DNA of 64,000 bases from Candidatus Hydrogenedentota bacterium (GTDB taxonomy: Bacteria > Hydrogenedentota > Hydrogenedentia > Hydrogenedentales > JAEUWI01): contig JACPGE010000074.1 of the NCBI GenBank assembly GCA_016182605.1, positions 1,694 through 65,693 of the forward strand, in the 5' to 3' direction. Below, in pieces: positions 6,730-50,517 of the stretch; position 1 is the stretch's first letter; each line of letters begins with the position of its first letter. The position numbers were made by a program, and so were the translations under genes. The notes under the pieces were generated by a model that searched no databases, was not told where the DNA came from, and worked only from the letters and a program-made list of their open reading frames with translations.

Positions 6730-7727
6730 CCGCAAACCACCCCTGCGAGAAAACCCGCGCCGGACTACAGCGCTACCTGCTGCAAACATCGCCCGATCGC
6801 GAACGGCAGGCCATCGAAGCCCACCTCCACACCTGTGCCGCGTGCCAGGAGGCCTTCGACGCCGAACGGGCCCGTCTCGCCATGCTGGACAGCCTGCCGC
6901 GCCACGAAGCGCCCGCGGGACTCGCGGAGCGGACCCTGGCGCGCATCCAGGAGCAACATGAATCCCGTACCCGCCCGGCGTGGTTCGCCCTAGGTACGGC
7001 TGCGGGCGTGTTGCTAGTGCTGATTTTTACCGTGCTGCCCATGTTGAACCGATCCCGGGAAGCTTCGATTCAATGGAGGACGCAAGACGTTATGAGGCAG
7101 CTTGGCATGGTTTTCATGATGTACGCGAATGAATTCCAAGGCGAGCGGTGGCCCAAACTGGCTAAGTTGGATCGGGCATGGGCTCCCGATCTCGCCTCCC
7201 TGTACCCCAATTTCATTGTTGATTCTGAAGCGCTCATTGCGCGTGAGCATCCGGAGCGCGAGAAACTCAACTTGGCGCTCCGCGAGGCACTGCAACAACC
7301 CAAACCTGACTTTGAAGCGGCAGAAGAGATCATGGGAGAGAGCTTCGGCTATCTGGGCTACGCCGTGACGAACGAAAAGGACTTCAACGCACTGCGGGAC
7401 GCGAAGGCGAACAAATCGCTTTCTGACACAAGCGGTACCCTGACGGACCCGGGCGGCGTCCGCGACCTCTACACACTTCGCGAAGGCGTCGAACGCTTCT
7501 TCATCACCGACATCAACAACCCCGCCGGATCAACAGATGCCCACTCCACGATCCCGGTGCTCGTCGAGATTGCCTCGTGGAAATTCAAGAAGTCCGTCGA
7601 ATCCTATCGCGGCGCCAACGTACTGTACCTGGACGGCCACGTGGAATTCGTCCCCTTCGGCGCCTTTCCCGTGATCCCCGCCGTACTCGACGCCCTGAGC
7701 GGTATCACGACCGATTCGGAGGAGTAG
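6726..7727 (+). CDS. zinc-finger (zf-HC2) anti-sigma factor fused to a degenerate DUF1559/H-X9-DG-like periplasmic domain
   Basis: HLHTCAACQEAF zf-HC2 motif, one TM (WFALGTAAGVLLVLIFTVLPML), then a segment resembling the DUF1559 N-region (SREASIQWRTQDVMRQLGMVFMMYANE). The C-terminus carries ITDINNPAGST and ANVLYLDGHVEFV motifs resembling DUF1559 TDGTSNT / H-X9-DG. It is translationally coupled to the ECF sigma. Confidence 0.6.
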   Translation: MTANHPCEKTRAGLQRYLLQTSPDRERQAIEAHLHTCAACQEAFDAERARLAMLDSLPRHEAPAGLAERTLARIQEQHESRTRPAWFALGTAAGVLLVLIFTVLPMLNRSREASIQWRTQDVMRQLGMVFMMYANEFQGERWPKLAKLDRAWAPDLASLYPNFIVDSEALIAREHPEREKLNLALREALQQPKPDFEAAEEIMGESFGYLGYAVTNEKDFNALRDAKANKSLSDTSGTLTDPGGVRDLYTLREGVERFFITDINNPAGSTDAHSTIPVLVEIASWKFKKSVESYRGANVLYLDGHVEFVPFGAFPVIPAVLDALSGITTDSEE

Positions 7728-7874: not shown

Positions 7875-8741
7875 CTACTCACGTTTCTCATCCCAAGAGA
7901 ACGGAATCTCAAGGTCAACCTTCTTATTGTGAACGCGAAAGGTAACTTTCAAGAGTTCATCTACGATTTGAAAATCATCCACAGCCCAACGATTCGGATC
8001 CATTGCCTGCTCCCGCACGGTGCTCAAATCGATCTCCTGGGCCAATAATGAAATCTTCTCATCTCCATCAATCCATACCCGGAGTAAGTACAACTCCGAA
8101 GCGGCACGCTCAACATAATAACGGTGATTGAGCAGCGCACAAAAGGCACTAGAATCGGGTTTCCACTCGATATGCGATTGCACAAACCATTTCTTGACAG
8201 GCGGGCTTTCCGATTCGTCACCATAGCCTCCCTCGGGAAAGATTACGCCTTCCTGAACGTCGGTCTTGTCAAGGCGAAGCAGATTTACCGTCGGCCAGAC
8301 TTGAGCGTCTGTGGGATGCAAGGGGTAAAAGCTTTCCAGCGCCGCGTACTTGCCGTCAGGCGAGATTGAAACCTTTCTTCCCCAAACGTCTTGAATTGAT
8401 TCTCCCGTTTCACAAGCAATTTTGGTAATTGACTGAACGTTACTGTCGCTCAATACTGCATTAACAACAACGAGTTCCCCATGAAGTGTCAATTGCTTGA
8501 CACTTGTAACCGTGCTGGGCAATTTCGCAGCGACATTTCTATTCGTTTCGCTATTTCGTATGGTGACATGCGGAGTTTTGTTTGCCCCGCCATCAGGGAC
8601 GGCTTTCACTTCATACTTTAAGCTCTTTGCTGTTGGCGCACTTCGACCTTCGTCACTTGCCGCAACACCTATCAGCACGATACACAAGAGACACATCATC
8701 TGAATTCGTCTTATAGTCGACCAAATCTGGCGCTGATTCAT
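7875..8741 (-). CDS. hypothetical exported protein (low-GC segment)
   Basis: ORF with an N-terminal hydrophobic segment (MMCLLCIVLIGVAAS) and markedly lower GC than the flanks. No recognisable domain. Confidence 0.4.
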   Translation of the reverse strand: MNQRQIWSTIRRIQMMCLLCIVLIGVAASDEGRSAPTAKSLKYEVKAVPDGGANKTPHVTIRNSETNRNVAAKLPSTVTSVKQLTLHGELVVVNAVLSDSNVQSITKIACETGESIQDVWGRKVSISPDGKYAALESFYPLHPTDAQVWPTVNLLRLDKTDVQEGVIFPEGGYGDESESPPVKKWFVQSHIEWKPDSSAFCALLNHRYYVERAASELYLLRVWIDGDEKISLLAQEIDLSTVREQAMDPNRWAVDDFQIVDELLKVTFRVHNKKVDLEIPFSWDEKRE

Positions 8742-8752
8742 GGATGCTCTCC

Positions 8753-10783
8753 TCAATACAACTTAATAGTTTGAAAATTGCCTAGGTCTACAATAGACGC
8801 GCCGCAATGAACTACGTCGAGATCAAAATTATCTAGTTGATGCTCTTCGTCAAACCCATCATTGGGACTATCGGTGAAATCTCCCGAGTCTCTGACTGTC
8901 TTTACGGTGCCAACTCCGCCGCCAAGTCCCACAATCAGAACGCGATCATTGCAGTGAAGTATCTCACTTTGAAAATGACGAGCAACTGTTGTCCCATCTA
9001 CAGCAGCACCACAGCTTCCCATCGCCTGCTCCATGATTCTAAAGGTGCGATTCCTTACTGCATCTACCGGTCGTCCTTCACAATGATCGTAATCGTAAGT
9101 ACTCCTCGTGACTAATCCATGCTCTATCGTAGTACCGCTACCGTTAAGCAGTAATCTCTCTAAGAATAATGCATGCAAAGTTGCTTGGACCCACTGGCAA
9201 TCATCCGTCATATACACAGGTGGCGCCATGGTCCCATCACCTTGACAGGTGGCTTCTGCTTCGTCCGGTATATTGTAACGGCTGTGCCGGAACATCCCAA
9301 GATTTTCGAAGTGGTAATCCTTGTCGTCGCTATACTCAACGTTGTCGACAGTCCATTCCGCCGTGATGCCGGTGAATTCGGCTACAGGGAGATTCGCAAG
9401 GCCAAAGGATTCCACGTGCTGGCCTGCCTCACGAGAAGCTGACAGAATCTCGTGAGGTCCTCCTGGCCCCGTCAATGTCAAAACCAATGTTCCAATTACG
9501 CCGGTCGGGCCCAAGAGGACTTCAATCCGATCTTCTGTGACTTCTACATCACGAATTTTTACGGTAAGCTCGACAAATACTCCTGTCACCGTTTTGTCCG
9601 AGTCCATCGTCAGTTCGCCCGGATCGGCTTCGCCAGTCAGATCGCCCTCCCAGTGGTCGAATACCCAATCCACTTCCGCCGTAGGCGTGAGCGTTACGAC
9701 CGATCCTGACGTATAAGGCCCTTCGGCCGGCAAGACTTCGAGCGTGCCTTGGCCTGAAGTATTTGATGTCAACGAGAACCCCTGCACGAACACCGCCGTC
9801 ACGGTCTTGTCCCCATCCATCGTCAAGGTGCCGGGATCCGAATTGCCCGTCAAATCACCTTCCCAATGATCGAATACCCAATCCGTGGCCGGTGTGGGTG
9901 TTAGCGTCACTGTGGTTCCACTGTCATACGGGCCATTTTCCGGCGATACCTCCACTGTTCCCTGACCATCCGTTTCGACAGTCAAGGCAAACTCTTGCAC
10001 AAACACCGCCGTGATCAACTTGTGCCCGATCATGGTTATGGAAGCCGGGTTGGCGGAGCCCGACGTGCCGCCACTCCAATGGTCGAAGACCCAGCCACTG
10101 GCCGGCGAAGGCGTCACCGTGACCGTTGTCCCCTGCACGTAGGTGCCCATTTCGGGCGACACGGTCCCTTCGCCCTCCACCGAAACCACCAGGTAATACT
10201 GTGGATAGAACACCGCCGTGACGGACTTGCTTTCATCCATCGTCACGGTGGCCGGATTGTCCGAGCCAGAGAGGTCACCCGTCCAGTGGTGGAAGACCCA
10301 ATCGGGCACGAGGAGTCCACCATCCGTTTCGGGAATAGCCGTGACACTCACCTGGGTACCCTCGGGGTAGATGCCGGCTTCCGGCTCGACTCTCCCCTCG
10401 CCTTCCGTGGCGGTTTGCAGCCCATATAGCGGCACAAACACTGCCGTGATCGATTTGTCCGCGTTCATGGTCACGGTACCCGGATTCGACGTGCCGTTCA
10501 AATCGCCGGTCCATTCCTTGAAGGACCATCCCGTGGCAGGTGTGGGGGCGATGCTAACCTGGGTCCCCTCGGTATAGGTGCCGCTGGCGGGTGAAACGCT
10601 CCCTTGGCCAGTCGTCGCGACGCTCAGTGTGTGCGTGGCCTGTACGAAGTGGGCCGTGATCGATTTGTGCCCGTCCATGGTTACGGAGCCCGGGTTGACC
10701 GATCCGGAGTAGCCGCCGGACCAATCGTCGAATTCCCGACCGCTTGCGGTTGTGGCGGAGATCGTGAGTGTTTCATCCTGCAC
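8753..10783 (-). CDS. InlB B-repeat (Flg_new-type) containing protein with low-GC Cys-rich C-terminal domain; 5' end apparently disrupted (possible pseudogene)
   Basis: About 7 tandem ~75-aa repeats of the pattern GxGxVxxxPxxGxYxxGTxVTLTPTPAxxWxFDHWxGDLTGxxxPxxxTMDxDKTVTAVF. The listed Met lies in the middle of a repeat. An in-frame TAA sits 12 nt upstream and repeat-like sequence continues to about 11.0 kb in shifted frames, with no signal peptide. The C-terminal ~250 aa are low GC. Confidence 0.6.
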   Translation of the reverse strand: MQDETLTISATTASGREFDDWSGGYSGSVNPGSVTMDGHKSITAHFVQATHTLSVATTGQGSVSPASGTYTEGTQVSIAPTPATGWSFKEWTGDLNGTSNPGTVTMNADKSITAVFVPLYGLQTATEGEGRVEPEAGIYPEGTQVSVTAIPETDGGLLVPDWVFHHWTGDLSGSDNPATVTMDESKSVTAVFYPQYYLVVSVEGEGTVSPEMGTYVQGTTVTVTPSPASGWVFDHWSGGTSGSANPASITMIGHKLITAVFVQEFALTVETDGQGTVEVSPENGPYDSGTTVTLTPTPATDWVFDHWEGDLTGNSDPGTLTMDGDKTVTAVFVQGFSLTSNTSGQGTLEVLPAEGPYTSGSVVTLTPTAEVDWVFDHWEGDLTGEADPGELTMDSDKTVTGVFVELTVKIRDVEVTEDRIEVLLGPTGVIGTLVLTLTGPGGPHEILSASREAGQHVESFGLANLPVAEFTGITAEWTVDNVEYSDDKDYHFENLGMFRHSRYNIPDEAEATCQGDGTMAPPVYMTDDCQWVQATLHALFLERLLLNGSGTTIEHGLVTRSTYDYDHCEGRPVDAVRNRTFRIMEQAMGSCGAAVDGTTVARHFQSEILHCNDRVLIVGLGGGVGTVKTVRDSGDFTDSPNDGFDEEHQLDNFDLDVVHCGASIVDLGNFQTIKLY

Positions 10784-11068: not shown

Positions 11069-13855
11069 ATGAGACCCATACTGCTGTCCCTGTTCCTTCT
11101 GTTCACGGCCCTTTCAGCACTTGCAGACGATTTGGCTACGCTGGCCCCGCCGCCGCCCGGCCCGCCCGATACCGAGTGGATCGTGCCCGAATTGCCCTCG
11201 GCAGACATGCGCCTGTCGTGGTCCGATTTTCGCACGCTGCTGCAACTGCTCCCCACGGCCGCGCAAACCGGGCGCGAGAAACCCGATCCGCCCCCCTGGC
11301 CCTGGGCCGTGACCAGCGCACGCTACCACCTGGACGCCACGGATCACCCGGCGGTCCCCGCGGAACTGAGTCTCGAAGTGGAGGTCTGGGCGGATGCCTG
11401 GACCACCATCCCGCTACTGGGCAATAGCATCGCCGTGAGCAGCGTGTCGATCGACGGTACTGCGTCGTCCCTGCGCGACCAGGACGGCTGGTTCACGCTG
11501 CTGCTGAAAGACCCCGGGCACTATCGCGTGGATATTGCCTTCTTCGCCCAGACCGTCGAAGCCGATGGCGAAGTGACCCTGCAGTTTCCCGCCGTTGCCG
11601 CACCGGTCACGGAGGTGCTGTTGCTCCTGGGCGGCGACGCGGCGGCCGTCTCCTCGCCCAATGCCGCCCGTGTGACCCTGCACTCCAACGCGGACGGTCA
11701 GGAGGCCCTGCTTGCCCTGAAACCCGCCGAGACTCTGCAACTGCATTGGCAGCGCCCATCGCTCGTAAAAGAAAAGCTTCCGCCTGCCCCGCCACGCATC
11801 ACGGCGGATCTCCGCACCCAGGTGCGGCTCTCCGGCGGGCTCCTGGAAGGCACGGCGCGGGTGAACTTCGAAGTTCTCCGGGGCGCCGTGAACCGCTTCG
11901 CGCTCGAACTGCCCAAGGACGTGGTCCTGCTCGAAGTGGAGGGCGGGGATCTGGAGTGGACCCTGGAGGACGAGCCCGCCGTCCAATGCCTGCACCTCGT
12001 CCCGGCCAGCAGCGTCAGCGGGGTCTACCCCGTGACCCTGCGCTACGAGCAACTTCTCGCCGAAGACGCCGGGCCCGTGACCTTGCCCAAGATCGTCGCG
12101 CGCGATGTGGCGCGCCAGAGCGGCGCCATAGGCATCTCCACCGCGCGCAATTTCAGTATGGAAATCGCCGAGCCCACCCTGGGCGTGACGCGCACCGATC
12201 CGGAAGGTCAGTTTGCCCTGGGCCTGGATTGGGAAATCCTGCACGCCTTCCGCTACAGCCAGACGGACTACCAGCTCACCGTCGCGGCGGCAGTCATCCA
12301 GCCCCGCATCGCCGCAGAGACCGAGATGCTGGCCAGTGTTTCCCCAACCGCTTTTCATGTACGGGCCAACGTGCACTACCGGGTCTTGCGCGGTGAAAGC
12401 AGCCGCCTCGCACTCGCGCTTCCCGCAGGCGTGAGTGTGCTGTCGGTCACTGGTCCCGGTATGGACTGGTACGCCGTGGACAGTGATGGCGGACAGCGCA
12501 TCGAGGTGGAACTGAACGAGCCGCTGACCGATCGGTGCACCGTGCACCTGCTGCTGGAACGCAACGTGGAGAACCTGGAAGAGGCCGTGCCTGTGCCGCC
12601 GGTTACCGTGCTGGATGCCGTGCGCCAGAGCACCTGGATCGGGATCGCCGCCGCCGGAAACGTGAAAGTGGACGTGGGCGCGGACACCGCCGGCCTTGGC
12701 CGTCTGGATGAATCGGAACTCCCGGCCGGCGTGCGCGCCCTGGCGGAAAGCCCGATACTGCACGCCTTCTCCAGCCAGTCGCCCACCTTCGTCCTCCCCC
12801 TGCTACTCAGCCGTCTCGACGACGTGGCCGTGCGCGTTGCTGCCATCGATGCTGCGGAACTCACGACCGTCGTCAGCGATGAGATGCTCATTACGCGCGC
12901 CCGCTACTGGGTGCGCAACAACCAGCGCCAGTTCCTCCGCATCGATCCCGGGCCGGATGTGGAAATCTGGGGCGCGCAGGCCGATGGCCACGCGGCCAGT
13001 CCGGCGAAAGACCCGGAGTCGGAGCATGGCGTGCTGCTGCCCATGCGCAAGTCCGTGGAAGGTGCAGGCGGTTTGGGCAGTTTTCCCATGGAGATCATCT
13101 TCATGCAACGGCCGCCCTTGCCGCGCTTTGGCCGCCTTGCACTCGCGCTGCGCGCACCCGCCACCGATATCCTCGCCGACCGTATGGCGTGGACGGTCTA
13201 TGTGCCTGAAGGCTACCGGGTGAGCGCTTCTGCGGGGGATCTCGCGCCCGTCGCCTTGCCGGTGATCCTGCCCAGTCCCAACCGGGGCGCCATGACCCTC
13301 GGTAATCCGGAAACGATTTACCGGCTGCGGGAAGGCATCGAACGCTTCTTCATCACGGACATCAACAATCCCGCCGGATCAACCGCAGCCCAGTCCAAGG
13401 ACTTCGCCGGCCAGACCTATGCCGCTGCCGAAGCGGGCGAGGCTTCTGTTCGTCTGGCTGGCGTGCTCCCCGTGCATATCAATCTGCCGCAAACCGGCGT
13501 CCCGCACCGCTTCGAGCGGGCATTGGCGCCCCAGGGCGCCGCGCTTCACCTGAATCTCGCATTGACCAATGCCCGCCTCATCTGGGCGTGGGCCGCCGCC
13601 AGCGCCCTGTCCTTCTTCCTGCTGGTCCTGGCCATCCGATTCCGCGCGCCCCTGCAGGAACGCGCCTCGGCCGCCGCGTGGCGGATCGCACTGGCGATCT
13701 TGCTCGCCGTGGCGTGCGCGTCGCTCCTGCAGGCGCCCGGGATCGGCGCCATGGCGGCCCTCGTTGGGCTGGCTGCCGCCGAGGCGCTCATCCGCCTGCT
13801 TCGTCTTCGCGCCGGCCGCGCGCCGCGCCACACAAGCACAGGGGACGCGGCATGA
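11069..13855 (+). CDS. large secreted/membrane-anchored hypothetical protein (928 aa) with a DUF1559-like ITDINNPAGST motif
   Basis: Signal peptide (MRPILLSLFLLFTALSALA) and C-terminal hydrophobic helices. It contains REGIERFFITDINNPAGST, which is nearly identical in DNA to a segment of the anti-sigma gene. The stop overlaps the next start (ATGA). Confidence 0.6.
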   Translation: MRPILLSLFLLFTALSALADDLATLAPPPPGPPDTEWIVPELPSADMRLSWSDFRTLLQLLPTAAQTGREKPDPPPWPWAVTSARYHLDATDHPAVPAELSLEVEVWADAWTTIPLLGNSIAVSSVSIDGTASSLRDQDGWFTLLLKDPGHYRVDIAFFAQTVEADGEVTLQFPAVAAPVTEVLLLLGGDAAAVSSPNAARVTLHSNADGQEALLALKPAETLQLHWQRPSLVKEKLPPAPPRITADLRTQVRLSGGLLEGTARVNFEVLRGAVNRFALELPKDVVLLEVEGGDLEWTLEDEPAVQCLHLVPASSVSGVYPVTLRYEQLLAEDAGPVTLPKIVARDVARQSGAIGISTARNFSMEIAEPTLGVTRTDPEGQFALGLDWEILHAFRYSQTDYQLTVAAAVIQPRIAAETEMLASVSPTAFHVRANVHYRVLRGESSRLALALPAGVSVLSVTGPGMDWYAVDSDGGQRIEVELNEPLTDRCTVHLLLERNVENLEEAVPVPPVTVLDAVRQSTWIGIAAAGNVKVDVGADTAGLGRLDESELPAGVRALAESPILHAFSSQSPTFVLPLLLSRLDDVAVRVAAIDAAELTTVVSDEMLITRARYWVRNNQRQFLRIDPGPDVEIWGAQADGHAASPAKDPESEHGVLLPMRKSVEGAGGLGSFPMEIIFMQRPPLPRFGRLALALRAPATDILADRMAWTVYVPEGYRVSASAGDLAPVALPVILPSPNRGAMTLGNPETIYRLREGIERFFITDINNPAGSTAAQSKDFAGQTYAAAEAGEASVRLAGVLPVHINLPQTGVPHRFERALAPQGAALHLNLALTNARLIWAWAAASALSFFLLVLAIRFRAPLQERASAAAWRIALAILLAVACASLLQAPGIGAMAALVGLAAAEALIRLLRLRAGRAPRHTSTGDAA

Positions 13856-14592
13856 AAGTCAGTGGCAAGGAATTCGCCTTCATCCTGGCGGCGCTCATCG
13901 TACTGTCCATCCTCGTCGTGCCGGCGCTGTCGCGTGCGCGGGAGACGGGCAAGCGCGCCACGTGCCAGAACAACCTCAAACAATTGGGCATCGTGCTGAA
14001 GATGTACGCCAACGAATCCCGGGGCGAATGCTATCCGCCTCTGTCCCCAAAATCTGGCAATTGGATGATGGACATGGACGCCGTCTATCCCGAGTATCTG
14101 AGCGATCTGACCGTGCTGAAATGCCCTGACAGTCCGCTGAACTTCGACCAGGACTTCACGCTGCGCGAAAACATGCGCCACCCCGGGGCGCCCCTGAACG
14201 TGCCGCACCCCGACTGCGTGACCGGCAAGTACTACACCTACACCGGGTACACCCTCACGGGGGACGAAACGGCATTGGCACTCTACTTCGCCTATCACGC
14301 CAACCCGGACGCGGTGCGAAAGAAGGGCGATCTCACGCTCCCCATACCGCACTGGGAACACAGCCAATGGAACGCCATGAAGGGCGGTTTCGTGGTCCTA
14401 TGGGATCGCGTCCCCGCGGATCCTGCGATGATGCCCCACAAGGCGGGCGCGATCAATGTCCTGGCGGCGGATGGCAGCGTTCAGGCCGTGCGTTACTCGC
14501 CCATGAATCAATCCGAAAACTTTCCCGCCACGGAAATCGCGGCACTCACCTTTGGCCTGGACGTCCCGGAAACCGATCCCGGCTGTTACTGA
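13852..14592 (+). CDS. DUF1559 / H-X9-DG prepilin-like protein
   Basis: Start refined to ATG 13852 (MKVSGKEFAFILAALIVLSILVVPALSRARETGKRATCQNNLKQLG), matching the DUF1559 N-terminus LPAVQAAREAARRxQCxNNLKQIG. The C-terminal HKAGAINVLAADGSV fits H-X9/10-DG. Confidence 0.75.
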   Translation: MKVSGKEFAFILAALIVLSILVVPALSRARETGKRATCQNNLKQLGIVLKMYANESRGECYPPLSPKSGNWMMDMDAVYPEYLSDLTVLKCPDSPLNFDQDFTLRENMRHPGAPLNVPHPDCVTGKYYTYTGYTLTGDETALALYFAYHANPDAVRKKGDLTLPIPHWEHSQWNAMKGGFVVLWDRVPADPAMMPHKAGAINVLAADGSVQAVRYSPMNQSENFPATEIAALTFGLDVPETDPGCY

Positions 14593-14656: not shown

Positions 14657-15385
14657 CTACCCGCTCCAGCTAAAACTCTCCAGATGCTGCCGCAGCCGCG
14701 CCGCGCTGGGGAAGCGCTGGGCGACCAGCCCGCGCTTGAGCCCGCAGCAGATCTGCTTTGCCTCCGGAGGAAGGGTGTGGTAGTGCGTCCGCCCACCGGT
14801 GATATCGTAAAACACCTTCACGATATCGAAGATGTCCTCCACTACCCGCGTGCGTGATTGCCGCCCGCGGTGGAAGAAGTCAATCATCTTGACGTCGTAA
14901 CCGATTCCCTTCCGCCGTATCAGCACGTTCTCCATGTGAATGTCCCCATGATACTCGCCCGCGGCATGGATCGATTCAAGCCCAGCCGCCAGCTCATGGA
15001 GGATATGCATTGCCTCGAACGGGCGGATGCGTTTTCCGCGAAGCCCGGAGATGTAGGTTTTCAGCCCTTCGCCTTCCACCAAATCGCTCACGAGAAAAAA
15101 CACGTCCTCGCCACGAACCTTGCAGCGCTCATGCGTGCAATAGCGCAACAGGATGGGGCAGGCGGAAAGACGATCCAGTTTCACCGCGTATTGACGCAAC
15201 GTGCGATTGCCCTCGTTGCGTTCTGGAAAAAAGAACTTTGCCGCGCGGTGGATCCCCGTCGCCGCTTCGCAGATGCGGTACACCTCGCCCTCCCAGCCGC
15301 CGCCCAGACGATCGACAATGAGGTACTTGCCGAGTATGGTCTTTCCGGGGATGAACCCGAAACCTTTCTCCCGCATTTCTGGCAT
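14657..15385 (-). CDS. small RIO/Kdo-type protein kinase-like protein
   Basis: Gly-rich loop GGGWEGEVY, Lys in AAKFF, and catalytic-loop-like YHGDIHMENVLI (compare HGDLxxxNIL of RIO/Kdo/aminoglycoside kinases). Length 242 aa. Confidence 0.55.
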   Translation of the reverse strand: MPEMREKGFGFIPGKTILGKYLIVDRLGGGWEGEVYRICEAATGIHRAAKFFFPERNEGNRTLRQYAVKLDRLSACPILLRYCTHERCKVRGEDVFFLVSDLVEGEGLKTYISGLRGKRIRPFEAMHILHELAAGLESIHAAGEYHGDIHMENVLIRRKGIGYDVKMIDFFHRGRQSRTRVVEDIFDIVKVFYDITGGRTHYHTLPPEAKQICCGLKRGLVAQRFPSAARLRQHLESFSWSG

Positions 15386-15451
15386 ACGTTCCCACTTTCC
15401 CGCCGTGAACTATTCCGATGCAGTACTCGGGGCCGGGCGCTGCACCCGCCG

Positions 15452-16471
15452 CTACGAAAGCCCGCGCAGGAATTGAACTACGGCGGGCCCCAGATTATCA
15501 ATGTTGTACCCCCCTTCCTGAACCACGGCCGCCGGGATGCCCAGGCCCGCCACCGCCGCGCCCACGGCCTCCAAATCGCCCGGCAGCAATTCAAAGGCTC
15601 CTTCCGGATCCCCCGCACACACATCGGCGCCAAAGGAGACCACGAGCCAGGAGGGCCCAAACTGGGCCAATGCCTCCAGCGCGATTGCCAGCGCCCCCAT
15701 GTATCGATCTTTCGAGGCGCCCGGCGGCAGGGGAAGGTTCAGGTTCGTGCCCAGCCCCTCGCCGGCGCCACGCTCATCCGCATGACCGGCAATGTACGGA
15801 TAAGCGAGACCCGGATCGCCGTGAATGGAGAGCACCATCACCGCCGGATCCGTATAGAAAATGTCCTGCGTCCCGTTGCCATGGTGGTAGTCCAAATCGA
15901 GCACGGCGCCCCGGCTCTGCGTCTCGTGCGCGAGGCAGCGGGCGGCGATGGCCGCATTGTTCAGGTAACAGAAGCCGCCGCAATAGCCGGGACCCGCGTG
16001 ATGGCCGGGAGGCCGGCACAGGGCATAGGCGCTACGCTCTCCCTGGAGCACGGCTTTCGCGGCAGCCAGCGCCGAAGCGGCCGACGCCATGGCGCCGCTG
16101 AACGTGGTCTCGCACAGCGGCGTGTACGTGTCGAAGCAGTACCAGCCTGCGCAATCGGCGAGATCCGCGGGAGGCGGCGCATCCACCCGGCGTGGAAAGG
16201 TACTCGGGAAGAGCAGGGCTCCGCCGGGTTCGCGGGCCTGCCAGGCGGCCCACGCGCCCTCCAGAAACTCCAGGTAGGCCGCAGTGTGTACCCGTTGAAT
16301 CCAGCGCATATCGGGGAGTGCGGGCTCGCTCAGCGTATGGCCCGCGGCGACGAGCGCTTCGAGAAGCACGGTGGCACGGTGTGCCGGCTCGGGGTGGGGC
16401 GCAAGCCCGGCGGGGAGCAATTGATGTGCGGGAGCATGCGCAAGTTGATTCGGGCTGAAGTACACCTGCAT
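15452..16471 (-). CDS. histone deacetylase-family hydrolase (acetylpolyamine/acetoin-utilisation amidohydrolase-like)
   Basis: Start refined to MQVYFSPN (ATG at 16471). Class-defining DLDYHHGNGTQDIF motif plus the PPGHHA motif. The long upstream extension of the raw ORF was rejected. Confidence 0.8.
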   Translation of the reverse strand: MQVYFSPNQLAHAPAHQLLPAGLAPHPEPAHRATVLLEALVAAGHTLSEPALPDMRWIQRVHTAAYLEFLEGAWAAWQAREPGGALLFPSTFPRRVDAPPPADLADCAGWYCFDTYTPLCETTFSGAMASAASALAAAKAVLQGERSAYALCRPPGHHAGPGYCGGFCYLNNAAIAARCLAHETQSRGAVLDLDYHHGNGTQDIFYTDPAVMVLSIHGDPGLAYPYIAGHADERGAGEGLGTNLNLPLPPGASKDRYMGALAIALEALAQFGPSWLVVSFGADVCAGDPEGAFELLPGDLEAVGAAVAGLGIPAAVVQEGGYNIDNLGPAVVQFLRGLS

Positions 16472-16581
16472 GACGCCGCTCCGGGAAGCTGCCCGGGATT
16501 CACGTCCCGGACGCGGTCGGGATAGGGATGCTGTACCGCGGCTACCGCGCGAACCCGCGATTGCCGCTTGCGGCGGACCGG

Positions 16582-17646
16582 CTATTTGCGATCCAGGTCC
16601 TCGAACAGGGCTTTGACGAGGAGCGGAAGCACGACCGTCGCGTCGGCATAGACTTCGGCAAACTGCCCGCCGGCGGAGGGCGGGACAAACTTGCCCCAGC
16701 TCACGCCTTCGGTGTAGGTGCAGCCCGAAAGTCCGCCCCAGTGCACGGGTTCGGGACAGATCCGGACGCCGTAGTGGAAGCGCGGTTCCGGGAGGGTGAT
16801 GTCCAGCCGGTGGGAGGTGATGTCGAAATACGGGGCGACTTGCTGGGCCCAATTCCGCGGCACGCCGCCGCCGATCGTGAAGATGCCCAGTTTCTTCTTG
16901 TTTCGCACGAGCCGGGCATACTCCTGGAGATCCAGGAAGGGGTTGTAGTTCGGAACCACGTCGAAGATCGCGTCGTTGTTTTGCGCGTTGCCCAGACTCT
17001 TCCGCATGGCCCATGTGGCGACGTCCAGACCGAGTTCACTGTCCGTGAAGGCGGGGATGAATATGGGAACGTTGTTTTCCCACGCCGAGCGGACGATGCC
17101 TTTGCCCATGTCTTGTTTGGCAAATTCCTTGCCCAGGGCGCGGCAGAAACGTGCTGAGGACCACGCGCCGTCTTCCGGCTCGTGGTCGCTCAGCACGCTC
17201 GAAACAATCTCTGCCAGATAGTTGAGGTTGGACTCCATCTCCACGGTATCGTAGATCCGGTTGTAGCCCATCTCAAACAGCTTCTCGTCGTCAACGCCTT
17301 CCGGAACGGCATAGTGGGCGCAGCCCACCGATTCCGAAAGGCCGTGGGCCATCAGCGCGCCCGTTGCCACCACGGCATCGATCACGCCGCGCTCTATGAG
17401 CGACGCAAAGATGCCGCCCTGTTTCGCCACGGTCATCGCGCCGCTTACGGTGAGCACCCGGAGGCACTCCTCGTCGCGCGCCATGCCTTGCAGCACTTCG
17501 AGCGCGCGGCCCACATTCCTGCCCCCAAAGGCCGTCGACCCCATGGCGCGGACGAGATCCCCGAAGGAATGGACCGCGTTCAGGTCGAGACTTTTGAGCG
17601 CAATGAGCCCGTCACTTTCACCGTCATGAAACGAACGACAATTCAC
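16582..17646 (-). CDS. deoxyhypusine synthase-like protein (homospermidine-synthase-like, NAD-dependent)
   Basis: DHS-family features: TIGGGVPRNW, SELGLDVATWAMRK, length ~350 aa. Confidence 0.75.
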   Translation of the reverse strand: MNCRSFHDGESDGLIALKSLDLNAVHSFGDLVRAMGSTAFGGRNVGRALEVLQGMARDEECLRVLTVSGAMTVAKQGGIFASLIERGVIDAVVATGALMAHGLSESVGCAHYAVPEGVDDEKLFEMGYNRIYDTVEMESNLNYLAEIVSSVLSDHEPEDGAWSSARFCRALGKEFAKQDMGKGIVRSAWENNVPIFIPAFTDSELGLDVATWAMRKSLGNAQNNDAIFDVVPNYNPFLDLQEYARLVRNKKKLGIFTIGGGVPRNWAQQVAPYFDITSHRLDITLPEPRFHYGVRICPEPVHWGGLSGCTYTEGVSWGKFVPPSAGGQFAEVYADATVVLPLLVKALFEDLDRK

Positions 17647-17662
17647 GCTGCTGATTCTTTCT

Positions 17663-18127
17663 TTAGGAGGCTAATTCCGGCACCAGTTTATGGAAGGCCG
17701 CGTCGCACTCCAGAGCCGCATCAAACCGGCCGCATTGACGCACCGAAACTTCCCCCAGGTCGATTTCCTGGAGGATGCATTCCAGCACGTCCCGGGGATC
17801 GGTGGTGCCACACGTGAAGATGTCCATGGCGATGAGGCCTTCATCCGCATACGTGTGGGCCGAACAGTGGCTCTCGTCCAGAAGTACGAACGCCGTGAAG
17901 CCTGGGGGGGAATCCAGGCCAAACTTGTAACGCACCTGGGAAATCACGTTCGCACCGGCGCGTTCCGCACCGCGGGCCATGGCTTCCAGGACGCGCTTGT
18001 CATTGAGACACACGTCGCGCGCGACGCCGCGACAATCTACCAGTAGGTGTTTTCCCTTTGACAACTCATAAACCCTCCTACAGTTGGAACCGAGTGAATC
18101 GACAGAAAAATGGAGCGTAATGTACAA
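17663..18127 (-). CDS. speH: S-adenosylmethionine decarboxylase proenzyme, small pyruvoyl-dependent (SpeH/class 1) type
   Basis: ESHCSAHTYADEG matches the AdoMetDC self-cleavage/active-site motif ESHxSxHTxPE. Size 154 aa. Confidence 0.75.
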   Translation of the reverse strand: MYITLHFSVDSLGSNCRRVYELSKGKHLLVDCRGVARDVCLNDKRVLEAMARGAERAGANVISQVRYKFGLDSPPGFTAFVLLDESHCSAHTYADEGLIAMDIFTCGTTDPRDVLECILQEIDLGEVSVRQCGRFDAALECDAAFHKLVPELAS

Positions 18128-18190
18128 CTGGCAGGCCAGTTGATGGAAAACTTATGGTAAAGAAACGGTAAAGTTTCCTGGGTGCGGGCT

Positions 18191-20113
18191 TCACGGCCGG
18201 AACCCCGCCGGGCTGGCGTAGCGCTCTTGGGCCGCTTCGATGATCATGCGCAGCAGATCGCCGTAGCTGTAGCCCGCGAATCCCGCCATTATATTCAATT
18301 TGCCGTCCCAGCACCAACCCGGATTGGGATTCACCTCGAGGAGTTTTATTTCGCCTTGGGAATCCGCCCGGTAATCGAAGCGTACGTAGTCACGGCAGCC
18401 CAGGCGCTCGAAAAGCAGCATGGAACTGTCGATGAGCCGGCGCTTGTAGCCTTCGCTCAGTTTTGCCTCGTGGTAAGAGATCTGGCTCCAGTAAGGCGAG
18501 CCGGGCATCCACTTCGATTCGTAGCCCAGAATCTGGGGCAGCCCCTTGTCGAGCCCGGAATAGTCCACCTCCAGCAGCGGCAGCACCGTAACGTTCATAC
18601 CGGGATTACCGATAATGCCCACACTATATTCGGATCCCTGCAAGAATTCTTGAACGAGCAGCGAACGGTTCGGGAATTCGGTGCGTAGCAGCTCCCAATA
18701 GGCCAGCAGTTCCTGCTTGTCGCTTACCACGGCATTCTGGGTAATCCCCTGGCTGCTGTCCCCCATATTCGGCTTCAGGAGCGCGGGAAAGGACGAGGGC
18801 AGCGTCGCCATTTGATCGTCGGGGGCGAAGTAGGACTCCAGGGGCACCGCAATGTCCATCGACATGGCCAGCGCGCGCACGTGGGCCTTGTTGTAACAGA
18901 GCCCGAGACAGGAGGGGCCGCTTCCGCTGTAGGGGATGTTAAACATCTCGAGCAGCGCCGGAACATGCAGCTCCTTGAAGGCGTCGTTCTTGTAGCCCTC
19001 GTCGCACAGGTTGAAAACGAATTCCGGCTTCTCCTTCAACAGGGAGGGCAAGAGCGCCTCGTGGTCGTAAAAATAGGCGAACTCGTAATCGCCCAACGAT
19101 TTCAGGGCGTCGCGCATCTTTGCGTTGGTGTCCAGATCCTCGGGATTGAACTGCCCGTTCAGTTTCACAATGTCCGGAAGTTGCGGATCGCCCATCAGCA
19201 CGGTCACATTGCGGAAGCGCACTTTGGGGTGCTGGCGCGGCTCCACCTGCACCGGCTTCTTCGCCACCACCATGATCCGGCGCGTAAGCATCCCCAGATC
19301 CTGCTGGCGCGTGGAGGCGGTCGCGGGCGCCTCGTGCTTCACGATCGAAATGAAGCCCGCGCGCCGCAGCAGGTCCTGAATCTGCTCGTAGGTGTAAAGC
19401 CGTTCCGCGTAGAATTGATCCGCGATGATGCCCCGCTCGGCGTGGGTCACCACTTCGCGCGAGATGAGCCGCTGGCCGTCTTTGGCCACCGCGCGTTCCC
19501 GGCACACGAAATGCTGCTGGTCGATCCACTCCCAGGAACGGGGCTCGTAGTGCTCGCGCATCCAGTCGCCGTTCACCAGATCCAGCACCACCTGACCGCC
19601 CGGCTTCAGCACGCGGCGCACCGACTGCAGTACGGCCAGATCGTCTTCCGCGCGCTCGAAGTATCCGAATGAATTGCCCAGGATGCCCACGCAGGCCATG
19701 GATTGCTCCGGCAGGCGGAAACGGCGTGCGTCCCCCTCGCGGAAGGTGGCGGAGAGCCCCTCGCGCTGGGCGCGCTTGCGTGCGAGCCGCACCAGATAAC
19801 GCGAACGGTCCAGCCCGGTGACGCGCGAGTATCCCCGCTTCGCCAGTTCCAGGCAGTGCCGGCCCTGGCCGCAGCACAGGTCAAGAAAGGCATCGTCCTT
19901 CTGCAACTGGGCAATCTCGACGAGCCGGTCCACGTCCTGCACGGTGTTCAAGCCGTTCTCTACGACATCGCCGTCCGTCTTGAGATAGACGGCGTTGAAG
20001 AGGGTGCGCCACCAATCGGCGGGCAGGTGGCGCTCGAGATCGGACACGGGGCCCAGGGTCTTTGGCGCCTGCGATGCCGAGAGCGCAATACGATGGTTGT
20101 TCAGGGGATCCAT
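18191..20113 (-). CDS. fusion protein: class I SAM-dependent methyltransferase domain plus ATP-grasp (D-Ala-D-Ala ligase-like) domain
   Basis: N-terminal half has the MTase motif I DLCCGQGRHCLELAKRGYSRVTGLDRS. C-terminal half has ATP-grasp features (EYSVGIIGNP..., KLLEVNPNPGW). Confidence 0.7.
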   Translation of the reverse strand: MDPLNNHRIALSASQAPKTLGPVSDLERHLPADWWRTLFNAVYLKTDGDVVENGLNTVQDVDRLVEIAQLQKDDAFLDLCCGQGRHCLELAKRGYSRVTGLDRSRYLVRLARKRAQREGLSATFREGDARRFRLPEQSMACVGILGNSFGYFERAEDDLAVLQSVRRVLKPGGQVVLDLVNGDWMREHYEPRSWEWIDQQHFVCRERAVAKDGQRLISREVVTHAERGIIADQFYAERLYTYEQIQDLLRRAGFISIVKHEAPATASTRQQDLGMLTRRIMVVAKKPVQVEPRQHPKVRFRNVTVLMGDPQLPDIVKLNGQFNPEDLDTNAKMRDALKSLGDYEFAYFYDHEALLPSLLKEKPEFVFNLCDEGYKNDAFKELHVPALLEMFNIPYSGSGPSCLGLCYNKAHVRALAMSMDIAVPLESYFAPDDQMATLPSSFPALLKPNMGDSSQGITQNAVVSDKQELLAYWELLRTEFPNRSLLVQEFLQGSEYSVGIIGNPGMNVTVLPLLEVDYSGLDKGLPQILGYESKWMPGSPYWSQISYHEAKLSEGYKRRLIDSSMLLFERLGCRDYVRFDYRADSQGEIKLLEVNPNPGWCWDGKLNIMAGFAGYSYGDLLRMIIEAAQERYASPAGFRP

Positions 20114-20652
20114 GGTCTAACTCCGCGCCCGTTGCGTCCGCGCTGCGCGGCTACTGGTGGCCTCTACGTTCATGTACTCACCGGATCTCGCGTGCACTTC
20201 GGTGCCCGCTGGGTAGGCGCACACCATACACTTCGCGTGGTTGTGCGTTCTGGGGTTGTTGTAGCGCTGGCTTCATTCGAGGGCTGTGCCTCCGCCCAGA
20301 TGCCCGCCCAAGGCGCCTGTGCCGCACAGCGGAGGTATCAAATCGTCGTAAGGCGGGTAATACGGGTCCGAAGCCCGGCAGCGCGTCTTTTGCCGCCGGA
20401 CACAGTTGCCCGCAACGATTTCACGCAGCGCGAATTCTTCGCGCTGTCCATCCGTTCCAAGATGTACGTCGGCGCCATGGCGATGTACTCTATTCCGGCA
20501 GGCGCCGGGTGGTTGTTGCCCCGAATCGGCAACAACATACTATGATGCGGCCCGGAATGCAAGCCTCTTTTCAGGCAACCCGGAAATTCTTCCTCCCGGG
20601 ACCCGATTTCCGTCTGTTGACCCCGCGCCGTTATACTGTACGGTGCCATCCC

Positions 20653-21783
20653 ATGGAAAACTCTTTGTATAGCGAAAGTAAAGAAATGGCAAATTCAACC
20701 GCTTCGCCGGATCAGGCTCCCGACCCGCTCACCGCCGAGCCGGGCCTGGGCATCGCGCCCGATGGCGCCGTCCGCCAGCCCAATGCGGCGCTGCTCCAGT
20801 TGCTGGGCGTGCCTTCCACGGTGCTGGAGGGCCTTCCGGTGCACTCGCTTGAAGCCCGCAAGGAGATCCCCGAAGGCATCGCCTGGAGTCTGGCGCAGCT
20901 TTTCGACGAGATGGCCGCTCCGGAGGCCCCCCCGGCCCTGGCCATGCTCGCCTCGGAAGGCGAACGGGTTTTCTGTCTCAAGGCCTTCCGGCGTGCGGGC
21001 GGCGGCGGACTCTGGGTGCGCGTGGATGAGATTACGGACGCGTATGAAACCCACTATTACGACGAGACGGCGCACCACAGCCGCTGGCAGGAGCTGGAAG
21101 CGGAGAACCGCGAACTTGAGGCCTTCGCCTACAGCGTGGCCCACGATCTGCGCGCGCCCCTCCGCTTCATCGCCAAGTTCGCGCACCTGCTCATGGAAAA
21201 CCATGGCGAGGAACTTTCCAATGAGGCGCTCCAATACGCCGACCAGATTCGCGAGGGCTCGCGCCAGATGGCCCAGTTGATCGAGGACCTGCTGGAGTTT
21301 TCCCAGGTGATCGGCCAGTCCATCGACCGCGAGCCCGTCGACCTCGGGGCGCTCGTCGCCCAGGTTTACGAAGAGATGGCGGAAGAGCGCGAGGACCGGG
21401 CGGTGGAATTTGTGCTCCATGAACTGGCGCCCTGCCACGCCGACCCCGCGCTGCTGCGGCGGGTCCTCTACAACCTCCTGGGAAACGCGTTGAAATTCAC
21501 CCGGACCCGCGAACGCGCCCGGATTGAGATCGGTATGCACTGGGACGCGGAGGAGGAGGAGGCCGTGTACCACATTCGCGACAACGGCGTGGGTTTCGAC
21601 TCGGAATTCAGCGACCGGCTGTTCCAGGTTTTCAAGCGCTTTCACCAGCCGGACGAATTCGAGGGCACGGGCATCGGCCTGGCGCTGGTGAAACGCATTA
21701 TAGAGCGCCACGGCGGCCGCATCTGGGCCGAAAGCAAGGTCGGTGAGGGCGCCTGTTTCTATTTTACGCTCGCGCCGGAATGA
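20653..21783 (+). CDS. sensor histidine kinase (PAS-like N-terminus, HisKA, HATPase_c)
   Basis: Start refined to ATG 20653 (MENSLYSESKEMANST...). H-box FAYSVAHDLRAPLR, N-box LYNLLGNALKFT, G-boxes DNGVGFD and GTGIGLALV. Confidence 0.8.
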   Translation: MENSLYSESKEMANSTASPDQAPDPLTAEPGLGIAPDGAVRQPNAALLQLLGVPSTVLEGLPVHSLEARKEIPEGIAWSLAQLFDEMAAPEAPPALAMLASEGERVFCLKAFRRAGGGGLWVRVDEITDAYETHYYDETAHHSRWQELEAENRELEAFAYSVAHDLRAPLRFIAKFAHLLMENHGEELSNEALQYADQIREGSRQMAQLIEDLLEFSQVIGQSIDREPVDLGALVAQVYEEMAEEREDRAVEFVLHELAPCHADPALLRRVLYNLLGNALKFTRTRERARIEIGMHWDAEEEEAVYHIRDNGVGFDSEFSDRLFQVFKRFHQPDEFEGTGIGLALVKRIIERHGGRIWAESKVGEGACFYFTLAPE

Positions 21784-24477: not shown

Positions 24478-27400
24478 ATGAACCGGGCAGGGGGCAAACG
24501 GCGTGAGGATTTGGGCGTGCAAGCATTGAGTGCCATTCCAGTTGTTTACTTTCCGCGGCCCGTGGCCTGTGCCGCTCTGGTCCTGGCGTGGACCCTCCCG
24601 GCCCTCGCGGCGGAACCGGTTAACTTCAACCGCGACATCCGCCCGGTGATTTCGGACAAGTGCGTCTCGTGTCATGGTCCGGACGAGAAGACGCGCAAGA
24701 TGGAACTGCGCCTGGATCGGAAAGACGGTCTGTTTGGGGTAACGAAAGACGGCGCCGCCATTGTGGCCCCGGGCAACCCCGATGCGAGCGCGCTGCTGCA
24801 ACGCATCACCCACGCGGATGTGGACGAGCGCATGCCTCCGGCGGAGACGAAGAATCCGCTGAGCGCGGAGGAAATCGAGGCGCTTCGGAATTGGATAGTC
24901 CAGGGCGCGCCCTGGCAGGACCACTGGGCTTTTGAACGGCCGGTGAAACCGGCGCTGCCCGAGGTTTCCAACCCGGCTTGGTGCCGCAACGAGATCGATC
25001 GGTTTGTGCTTGCGAAGCTGGATGAAGCCGGCTTGCCCCCCGGGGCGGAAGCCCGCAAAGAAACGCTTCTCCGGCGCGTTTCATTCGACCTCACTGGATT
25101 GCCGCCCACGCCCGGCGAGGTGGACGCTTTTCTCGCGGACACGAGCGACGGCGCCTACGAGACGTTGGTCGACCGCCTCCTCGCCACGCCGCAGTATGGG
25201 GAGCGCATGGCCTTCACGTGGCTGGACGCGGCGCGCTATGCCGATACGAATGGATACCAGCGCGACACCAAGCGGTACATGTGGCACTGGCGCGATTGGG
25301 TGATCAACGCCTACAACGAAAACATGCCCTTCGACCAGTTCACCATTGAGCAGCTCGCGGGAGATTTGCTGCCCGACGCCACGCTCTCGCAGAAGATTGC
25401 CACGGGCTTCAACCGCAACCACCGGATCAATGGTGAAGGCGGCATCATCCCGGAGGAGTATGCGGTGGAGTATGTGGTGGATCGGGTTGCCACGACCAGC
25501 ACCACGTGGATGGGGCTGACCATGGGCTGTGTCCGCTGCCATGATCACAAGTTTGATCCCATCTCGCAGAAGGAATTCTACGAGATGTATGCCTTCTTCA
25601 ACCGGGTCCCGGAGAATGGCAAAGGCGAAGAGCGCGGCAACGATGTGCCCTACATCGCCGTGCCCACGGCGGAAGAGACCGCGCGCCGGGAGGAACTCAC
25701 CGGGAAGATCGCGGCGGTGGAGCAGGAGCTTGCCGCCCCCGATGAGCGGCTCGATGGCTTGCAGCGCGCTTGGGAAGAGCAGCTCTATGCCACGTTCTCG
25801 GAACTCAACTGGCAGCCGATCGGCAATCCCACCGTCGCGGCCGTGAATGGCGCCGTGCTCACGCCACAGGCCGACCAGAGCCTGCTCGCGAGCGGCCCCA
25901 GCCCGGACAAGGAAGTCTATGAGATTTCCTTCGAGGCCACCGGGGCCGTGCGCTCGTTCAAGCTGGAGATCTTTACCGATCCGTCGCTGCCTGCGGGCGG
26001 TCCCGGCCGCGCCCCGGAAGGCAACCTCGTTATCTCCGGCTTCGAAGTCGAGCGCACTCCTGCTGGTGGCACGGGCGCAGCCGAGCCTGTGCGCGTTGCG
26101 GATGCCATTGCCGATTATGCGCAGGACAACGGCGACTACCGGGCCATCAACGCGATCGACGCGAGCGATGACACGGGCTGGGCCACGGGATCGCCCTACC
26201 GGCGGGAGAACCGATCTGCGATCTTCACACTCGCTCCGGATGCGGGCATTGCCGCGGGCGATCGCGTGACGGTGCGCATCCGTCAGAACTCTCCATATCC
26301 CCAGCACACCGTCGGGAGATTCCGTTTGCTGCAATCGGCCTCGGGCGCCGCGGCGGCGTGGGCGCGGCCCGAATTTGGGCCGTGGCATTACGTGGGCCCC
26401 TTCCCCATCGAGAACAACAACGACAGCATGCTCATTGAGCGTGTCTTCGCCCCGGAACGCGGCTTCGATCCCGATCGCGAACACGGTCCGGAGCGTCTGC
26501 GCTGGCAGGAACGGCCCGAGTGGGAAGATGGCAAGCTTGTCAATTTCGATGCCTCCGGACGCACTGCACACTACCTCCACCGCAACCTGCGCCTCGCCAT
26601 TCCCACCACCGTGGTGCTTTCCCTGGGCAGCAACGATGCCATCAAAGTCTGGGTGGACGGTGAGGTGAAACATCTTTTCAATGGCGGCCGGACGGTTGCC
26701 CCCGATCAGGATCGGGTGGAGCTTTTCCTTCCCGCGGGCGACCACAGCCTCCTGATCAAGATCGCCAACTTCGGCGGTGCGTGTGGCTATTATTTCCGCC
26801 ATGTGGACGATGGCGGGCAGGCGCTTTTCGCGATGATGCACCAGCTTGCGGCGCCGCCGGAACAGCGCGACGCGGAACAGCGCAGGATCCTGCAGGAGCG
26901 TTTTCGCGCGCAGGACGCCCAATGGGTTGCACGCAACGGCGCATTGATTGGCCTGCGGAACGAACTGGGCACGCTCGACAAGAGCATTGCCACCACCATG
27001 ATCATGGAGGACATGGCCACGCCGCGCGACACGTATCTTCTGAAGCGCGGTGTCTATGATGCGCCCGACACGACGGAGAAACTCTTTCCCAGCGTTCCCG
27101 AACGCCTGGGCGAAATGGATCCCGCCCTGCCGAAGAACCGGCTGGGTCTCGCGCAATGGCTTATGGACCCGAAACATCCGCTTACGGCGCGCGTGCAGGT
27201 CAACCAGTTCTGGCAGACACACTTTGGCCGGGGCCTGGTGAAGACCGCCGAGGATTTCGGCACCCAGGGCGCCGCCCCCAGCCACCCCGGACTGCTCGAC
27301 TGGCTCGCATTGCGCTTTATCGAGTCCGGCTGGGACGTGAAGGCGATGCACAAGTACATCGTCATGAGCGCCACATACCGTCAATCTTCGGTCGTCTCGG

Positions 27401-28095: not shown

Positions 28096-28100
28096 GCACC

Positions 28101-32428: not shown

Positions 32429-32448
32429 GGCTCTGTAATGCTCCGTGT

Positions 32449-50512: not shown

Positions 50513-50517
50513 TCGCG

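Follow-up and report, generated by a model that had tools for sequence, protein, structure and literature searches.

The biosynthesis of sym-homospermidine through the combined action of SpeDA and SpeY has already been published (JBC 2023 and 2026; PMC10407285, PMC13625781). A proline that is completely conserved in true AdoMetDC is lost in SpeDA, which has several independent origins and no clean sequence signature, and whose genes occur mostly in speY clusters (PMC10407285). Every bacterial SpeY tested so far uses agmatine and makes N1,N9-bis(guanidino)homospermidine (G44G), whereas eukaryotic deoxyhypusine synthase (DHS) does not make this product (PMC13625781). In Gimesia maris, speDA is the gene just upstream of speY, while aguA and aguB are found elsewhere, and in Capsulimonas corticalis the order is speDA-speY-speB (PMC10407285, PMC13625781). 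The word Hydrogenedentota has no text match in either paper. The locus considered here lies in a 64-kb stretch of DNA, called the window below, from a Candidatus Hydrogenedentota bacterium. It shares with the published clusters the adjacency and order of speDA and speY, a decarboxylase without the AdoMetDC proline and the lack of a nearby speE, and with G. maris a hydrolase that is presumably unlinked. It differs from these clusters in its phylum, in a SpeY clade that falls below the NCBIfam equivalog cut-offs, and in an acetylpolyamine amidohydrolase (APAH) gene that follows speY. The pair in the window is a further case of a known pathway, beside unrelated genes, and the route, which the preliminary description had taken to be unusual, was in the literature already. 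The surrounding block of five genes is probably a set of separate units placed side by side and not one pathway, with speDA-speY as a conserved functional core whose products would catalyse steps one and two on the agmatine-dependent ('diagmatine') way to sym-homospermidine.

Five minus-strand open reading frames are present in the block (14657-20113), as originally described, and each has a strong family match in a Pfam-type domain search. They can be regarded as real genes because each of the five proteins has full-length homologues of approximately 50-70% identity in other phyla; an exact-sequence look-up returned no identical record for the window SpeY or the fusion protein. The block is bounded by genes on the opposite (plus) strand, a DUF1559 gene at 13588-14592 and a histidine kinase gene at 20062-21783. 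Five co-directional genes in a row are nothing unusual in themselves. With TTG 18064 as the speDA start, the gaps from the fusion gene to the kinase gene measure 126, 16, 110 and 66 bp; the tight spacing first reported for the whole block applies to the SpeH-type/DHS-like junction, the only tight one, but not to the others. Promoter and terminator predictions did not outnumber those in shuffled sequence, none fell inside the block gaps, and the folding of these gaps is unexceptional (z -1.3 to +0.9). With no terminator found in the gaps, all five genes could be co-transcribed.

The SpeH-type gene (17663..18064, minus strand) encodes an AdoMet_dc domain (PF02675, E 9e-23). The mechanical ORF reaches TTG 18127; the start is most likely TTG 18064, which has AGGAGG 9 nt upstream and gives a product of 133 aa, like the homologues. 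The protein shares its fold with class 1b AdoMetDC, as in SpeD/SpeH from Bacillus subtilis and Thermotoga maritima (1TLU), and has kept the Glu-Ser site for self-processing as well as the His and Cys of catalysis: its E-S-H processing site, His and the Cys of FTCG align to T. maritima S63/H68/C83. It departs from the class 1b AdoMetDC plus SpeE arrangement in that HTWPE has become HTYAD (motif ESHCSAHTYAD), a Pro-to-Ala change at what the SpeD1 domains of Fig. S5 (PMC10407285) suggest to be the diagnostic site, in that 1TLU gives only 46 bits, and in having SpeY as the constant partner. The SpeDC (ornithine decarboxylase) signature, represented by the second domains of the same figure, is not matched by the window motif. 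Homologues with 63-73% identity are encoded directly upstream of speY in other genomes (loci L081/082, L085, L087, L088, L090, L091 and L171/172), and the proline is missing from all seven of these as well as from the window protein. Because the AdoMetDC-diagnostic proline is absent and the clade always adjoins speY, the protein is most likely SpeDA, an AdoMetDC-fold pyruvoyl-dependent L-arginine decarboxylase. The assignment was made by motif, context and published criteria. An arginine decarboxylase at this position implies no dcSAM or aminopropyl chemistry, and the AdoMetDC of the preliminary description is not supported, given the HTYAD motif and the speY-linked clade.

Only 16 bp further on lies the DHS-like gene (16582..17646, minus strand), the product of which matches the DS family (PF01916) at E 2e-76 and 258 bits. 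The catalytic lysine of its VSWGK motif is invariant in the SpeY alignment and aligns to ISWNK of archaeal DHS, and the protein is distant from true DHS (archaeal 8PUT, 78 bits; human, 48 bits). Its SpeY-membership score is 180 bits against a cut-off of 500, and the best NCBIfam model, NF002006, gives 232 against 434. The whole clade lies under every NCBIfam equivalog cut-off; it is a different clade, and no assayed member of it was identified. Among 88 speY loci, relatives with 51-68% identity have SpeDA, pyruvoyl arginine decarboxylase (ADC), agmatinase-family or AguB genes as neighbours. For relatives of at least 60% identity, speDA is upstream in nine loci; an agmatinase-family gene is directly downstream of speY in L085, L086, L091, L103 and L173-175; and more distant relatives have pyruvoyl ADC and agmatinase, or aguB, alongside. 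The association with an arginine decarboxylase and a hydrolase holds for the SpeY family, and the window locus has the decarboxylase partner only. The speDA-speY pair is the only unit of the block that recurs in related genomes. By motif and context, the DHS-like protein is most likely SpeY, a diagmatine (N1,N9-bis(guanidino)homospermidine) synthase, and the homospermidine function first suggested for it agrees with relatives encoded beside arginine decarboxylase, agmatinase and AguB genes.

It is unlikely that the SpeH-type protein is a genuine AdoMetDC and that its partner acts like eukaryotic DHS, with spermidine as the aminobutyl donor and SpeE encoded elsewhere. The decarboxylase does pass TIGR03330, the AdoMetDC 'equivalog' model, narrowly (80.7 vs 75.65 bits), and no catalytic residue (Ser, His, Cys) is missing. 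Against this stand the Pro-to-Ala change throughout the speY-linked clade, the agmatine use of the tested bacterial SpeY proteins, and the speDA-speY-agmatinase triplets of close relatives, which are sensible only with agmatine.

According to the preferred agmatine-dependent reading, SpeDA would generate its pyruvoyl group by cleaving its own Glu-Ser bond and would convert L-arginine into agmatine. SpeY, NAD-dependent and with a catalytic lysine, would then move the 4-guanidinobutyl part of one agmatine onto a second, yielding G44G. The third step may be carried out by a G44G ureohydrolase, or by an iminohydrolase together with an amidohydrolase, encoded outside the window and presumably elsewhere in the genome, as in G. 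maris. Within the 64-kb window there is no speE, agmatinase, aguA/B or pyruvoyl ADC gene; agmatinase, AguB and pyruvoyl ADC sequences used as tblastn probes gave only chance matches to it, and no agmatine deiminase (AguA) domain appeared in Pfam scans of window ORFs of at least 150 aa. The DHS-like enzyme, as stated earlier, does not point to the classical SpeE route. Several Hydrogenedentota relatives likewise have no adjacent hydrolase, so an unlinked hydrolase is normal.

The HDAC-like gene (15452..16471, minus strand; Hist_deacetyl, E 2e-68) begins at the ATG at 16471, internal to a 520-aa ORF. In the PDB, each of its five highest-scoring matches is an APAH (9GKZ, 262 bits; 3Q9B from Mycoplana ramosa, 243; 6PHR, 242; 3Q9C, 238; 3MEN, 230), and the matches to 3Q9B, 9GKZ, 6PHR and 3MEN (230-262 bits) extend over the full length with all catalytic and zinc motifs. 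PPGHHA, DLDYHHGNGTQ, GADxxxxDP and EGGY are retained in the alignment to 9GKZ, and the His-His dyad, Asp-His-Asp zinc site and catalytic Tyr of the class II HDAC fold are in place. The protein is of the polyamine-related APAH type, in line with the polyamine link first suggested for it, with its substrate predicted. It adjoins a homospermidine module, an arrangement absent elsewhere in the sample. It most likely frees polyamines from N-acetylated forms, in salvage or homeostasis, and would be a plausible, loose functional neighbour that is not conserved, as no APAH gene is found near speY at any of the 88 loci. By the original proposal's own standard this counts in part against it: the DHS-like protein falls with SpeY and the HDAC-like protein with APAH, both of characterised function, although these functions are polyamine-related.

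The first gene of the block (18191..20113, minus strand) encodes a 640-aa fusion with Methyltransf_25 (E 5e-20) and Dala_Dala_lig_C (E 6e-17) domains. It is a putatively bifunctional protein with an N-terminal class I SAM methyltransferase and a C-terminal ATP-grasp part of the D-Ala-D-Ala ligase type. The nearest solved structure to the methyltransferase part is the bacillithiol N-methyltransferase NmbA (9RI2, PMC12719100), nearly all of which is covered by the alignment at 94 bits, and the C-terminal half matches Ddl and VanA. These known enzymes differ from it in that no characterised enzyme has this fusion, and both halves are far below the Ddl family cut-offs; the NmbA paper makes no mention of an ATP-grasp fusion (PMC12719100). 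At least 568 relatives are found across species genomes, and the best 80 of these, from many phyla, are full length with approximately 56-67% identity. Within 10 kb, speDA and speY are absent from all of the best 80, and none has a full kinase gene nearby; the sole match to the kinase is a fragment of 43 aa at the L080 edge. When the ORFs of the same 80 loci were clustered, no neighbour was common to different phyla. A 16-locus cluster corresponds to a housekeeping gene, RsmB-like, that is restricted to Hyphomicrobiaceae and to alphaproteobacterial MAGs related to them, and the sporadic partners are AstE/AspA-type and MATCAP-type hydrolases. The fusion adjoins the polyamine genes but is not their conserved partner.

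At the other end of the block, the gene at 14657..15385 (minus strand) encodes a small Hanks-type Ser/Thr protein kinase of about 240 aa (Pkinase, E 5e-14), consisting of the catalytic core only. The earlier family assignments agree with the profiles for all five proteins, except that the RIO/Kdo label of the kinase has to be dropped: no family other than Pkinase exceeds its cut-off, Kdo (21.1 bits) is just below its own, and the RIO profile gave no match. Homologues with 46-59% identity occur in many phyla with variable neighbours, among which PP2C_2 adjoins in L167, L169 and L080. A gene for the fusion, SpeDA, SpeY or APAH was near the kinase in none of four kinase loci, and a link of the kinase to polyamines has no support. 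Like the fusion, the kinase belongs to a widespread family whose neighbourhoods elsewhere are unrelated to polyamines.

These results bear directly on the proposal that the five genes form a single operon for an unusual polyamine, possibly acetylated, methylated or amide-conjugated, with dcSAM from a true AdoMetDC. Of these genes, three are related to polyamines, all five run in one direction with gaps of 16-126 bp and without a predicted terminator, and ATP-grasp enzymes can form polyamine amides, e.g., glutathionylspermidine synthetase. Nevertheless, the five-gene set occurs elsewhere in none of the 80 fusion loci (the best 80 of at least 568), the 88 speY loci or the four kinase loci; the decarboxylase lacks the AdoMetDC proline, no aminopropyltransferase is encoded in the window, and the sporadic partners of the fusion are not polyamine genes. 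Such an operon is very unlikely, and the novel five-enzyme polyamine pathway, as first posed, is not supported. Slightly less probable still is that the block forms a genuine unit in this lineage, in which APAH would be a new final or deprotection step and/or the fusion would make N-methylated or amide-linked homospermidine. If true, this would give the first substrate for a family whose conservation reaches about 60% identity in more than 10 phyla.

It is more doubtful again that the APAH-type enzyme took over the last step of the pathway by hydrolysing G44G, bis(carbamoyl)homospermidine or an acetylated intermediate. APAH and arginase belong to one fold superfamily, an arginase-family gene is immediately downstream of speY in close relatives, and APAH occupies that slot in a window without ureohydrolase or AguB. 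Even so, a cryptic ureohydrolase was rejected as the main reading, with all deacetylase zinc and catalytic motifs intact and true APAHs as the best matches. The speY-APAH gap is 110 bp, none of the 88 speY loci has APAH, the kinase or the fusion, and the unlinked hydrolase is normal among Hydrogenedentota relatives. The least probable reading of all is that the DHS-like protein, as a DS family member with the catalytic lysine kept, acts on the lysine of a protein, as in hypusine formation, instead of making a free polyamine: it is distant from true DHS, its neighbourhoods belong to small-molecule polyamine synthesis, and no translation-factor gene was found near speY.

The preferred reading, a speDA-speY core beside separate units, extends the agmatine-dependent homospermidine route of SpeDA and SpeY to Hydrogenedentota. 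It also illustrates that a pathway is easily misjudged from an 'AdoMetDC' annotation. The most useful by-product of the analysis is the methyltransferase/ATP-grasp fusion family, which is very widespread, strongly conserved and uncharacterised.

The gene block at 14657–20113 is best explained as a probable instance, in a further phylum, of the SpeDA-SpeY homospermidine module known from the literature, with an acetylpolyamine amidohydrolase (APAH) gene after it and two unrelated genes flanking. All five genes are located on the minus strand. The first (18191–20113) encodes a 640-aa fusion in which Pfam recognizes a class I SAM methyltransferase and a D-Ala-D-Ala ligase C-terminal domain. Next come an AdoMet_dc gene (putative speDA, ORF extent 17663–18127), a gene of the deoxyhypusine synthase (DHS) family (Pfam DS; putative speY, 16582–17646), a Hist_deacetyl gene (15452–16471), the ATG of which at 16471 falls within a longer 520-aa ORF, and a small Pkinase gene (14657–15385). 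The fusion, the DHS-like protein, and the kinase have full-length homologues with 46–70% identity in several phyla. The most likely start of speDA is TTG 18064, because AGGAGG is present 9 nt upstream and the predicted 133-aa product has the length of annotated homologues. With this start, the intergenic gaps, from the fusion towards the kinase, are 126, 16, 110, and 66 bp. The preliminary description of a tightly spaced cluster therefore holds for the five minus-strand ORFs and their clear Pfam assignments, but the spacing is tight at one junction only. Plus-strand genes border the block on both sides (DUF1559, 13588–14592; histidine kinase, 20062–21783). Matches to consensus promoters and terminators were not commoner than in shuffled sequence, with none inside the gaps, and the folding of the gaps was not exceptional. 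On the minus strand at 18125–18142, 49 nt past the fusion stop codon, the sequence can form a hairpin (CAACTGGCCTGCCAGTTG; 7-bp stem, 4-nt loop), and a T-rich stretch starts approximately 14 nt beyond it. Although not a canonical intrinsic terminator, this structure is the sole candidate for a boundary that would separate speDA from the fusion gene.

The recurrence of the gene set was analyzed from several of its members. Homologues of the fusion were searched for with an alignment of 20 sequences in one genome per species, and the 10 kb flanks of the best 80 of at least 568 loci were searched by tblastn with the other four proteins. Neither SpeH nor DHS genes were found in these flanks. The same 80 loci contained two HDAC-family genes, both on the opposite strand (L035 and L043), and a single 43-residue kinase fragment at the edge of L080; clustering of all adjoining ORFs revealed no neighbour common to these loci across phyla. 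APAH, kinase, and fusion genes were absent from all 88 speY loci sampled (80 metagenome loci and those obtained via exact look-ups). For the kinase, the neighbouring genes differed among four loci, and the other four genes were missing from all of them. Consequently, the five-gene architecture is specific to the window. The AdoMet_dc/DS pair is the only part that recurs among the sampled loci, and the proposed five-gene polyamine pathway is not supported.

The conserved pair is explained by published work on SpeDA and SpeY from one laboratory (PMC10407285, JBC 2023; PMC13625781, JBC 2026). SpeD/AdoMetDC homologues have repeatedly been turned into pyruvoyl-dependent decarboxylases of arginine (ADC; SpeDA) or of ornithine (SpeDC). 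The majority of speDA genes belong to speY clusters, and the main sequence difference of SpeDA is the loss of a proline that is fully conserved in true AdoMetDC (PMC10407285). The processing and catalytic residues of the window protein align to S63, H68, and C83 of T. maritima, while its motif is ESHCSAHTYADEG as opposed to ESHLTIHTWPEYG in T. maritima. The same change from proline to alanine occurs in each of the seven homologues located immediately upstream of speY at other loci. The diagnostic proline was picked from the true SpeD1 domains in Fig. S5 of PMC10407285, which keep WPE and have no proline after the cysteine. The SpeDC signature of that figure is absent from the window protein. 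The TIGR03330 model for AdoMetDC is passed narrowly, with 80.7 bits against a cut-off of 75.65.

All bacterial SpeY proteins tested convert two agmatines to N1,N9-bis(guanidino)homospermidine (G44G), which dedicated ureohydrolases or iminohydrolases then take towards homospermidine (PMC13625781). The DHS-like protein of the window keeps the catalytic lysine (VSWGK), is no more than a remote relative of true DHS (78 bits to archaeal 8PUT and 48 bits to the human enzyme), and is below the cut-off for every NCBIfam equivalog. In nine loci, relatives with at least 60% identity have speDA upstream. An agmatinase-family gene is directly downstream of speY relatives in L085 (9084–9989), L086, L091, L103, and L173–175 (7070–8002 in L173), and many loci with relatives of 51–56% identity contain a pyruvoyl ADC and agmatinase, or aguB. 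By association, these SpeY-type neighbourhoods support the prediction that the window protein is a SpeY.

In the 64-kb window, genes for spermidine synthase, agmatinase, AguB, or a further ADC were detected neither by Pfam scans of ORFs of at least 150 aa nor by tblastn probes. The last homospermidine step must be encoded beyond these 64 kb or else be performed in some other way. The last-step genes of G. maris are likewise unlinked to its speDA-speY, and in two other Hydrogenedentota genomes the last-step gene also seems to be away from the speY locus. The HDAC-like protein is predicted by homology to be a polyamine deacetylase, because the five solved structures that it matches best (230–262 bits) are without exception acetylpolyamine amidohydrolases and it retains the His-His dyad, the Asp-His-Asp zinc site, and the catalytic Tyr. 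Its place beside a polyamine module therefore makes sense, although the adjacency is not conserved in the 88 speY loci. In the window, the slot directly downstream of speY is taken by this deacetylase gene, whereas several close relatives have a gene of the agmatinase family (arginase fold) there. APAH-type deacetylases and the agmatinase family belong to the same fold superfamily. On the basis of the slot position, the APAH-type enzyme might be read as a new final or deprotection step, which is improbable.

The small kinase, initially described as RIO/Kdo-like, is better assigned to Pkinase as a minimal Hanks-type enzyme, since its Kdo match is just under the Pfam cut-off and RIO gives no match. 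PP2C_2 phosphatase genes adjoin the kinase in L167, L169, and L080. In L080 (1–7342), from a gammaproteobacterial MAG, a fragment of the small-kinase family, the PP2C_2 gene, and a MATCAP (DUF1704) carboxypeptidase gene are upstream of the fusion gene, and MFS and AstE/AspA genes come after it. Two unrelated genomes, those of the window and of L080, thus have the small kinase only a few kb away from the fusion; this link is absent in the other 79 of the best 80 fusion loci and in the four kinase loci.

Elsewhere in the window, an RND efflux operon (HlyD-type adaptor, AcrB-family pump, and outer-membrane factor; 29–5893) is followed by genes for an ECF sigma factor and a zf-HC2 anti-sigma factor (6127–7727). 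Three paralogous gene pairs (24478–29549, plus; 30977–35616, minus; 47963–51969, plus) each combine a PSCyt1/PSCyt2/PSD1 (DUF1549/DUF1553) protein with an adjoining DUF1501 protein, which is typical of Planctomycetota-like genomes. The G+C content is 0.50–0.57 at 8001–10000 and 56001–64000, compared with approximately 0.63 elsewhere, and this DNA may have been acquired. It contains the gene for a protein of 676 aa in which Flg_new_2 is repeated six times (8753–10783) and two large ORFs without a Pfam match (57456–60263 and 60290–62149).

The fusion family is very widespread and strongly conserved, with no characterized member. Relatives occur in at least 568 loci across species genomes. The best 80 share 56–67% identity over the whole length and span more than 10 phyla, including Nitrospirota, Hydrogenedentota, Planctomycetota, Omnitrophota, and Sumerlaeota, as well as Alpha-, Beta-, Gamma-, and Deltaproteobacteria and Dehalococcoidia; cultured carriers include Hyphomicrobium zavarzinii and Filomicrobium insigne. 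Among solved structures, the methyltransferase half is nearest to NmbA (9RI2, 94 bits), an enzyme that methylates bacillithiol at the amine nitrogen of its cysteine, and the ATP-grasp half is similar to Ddl and VanA. An AstE/AspA-type hydrolase gene adjoins the fusion in 7 of the best 80 loci, from three lineages (L023, L029, L031, L035, L038, L050, and L080). Together with the MATCAP, PP2C, and kinase-fragment genes of L080, these neighbours hint that a ligase and a hydrolase work as a pair, with a substrate of amino-acid or peptide-like nature rather than a polyamine. Among the findings here, this family most deserves a study of its own.
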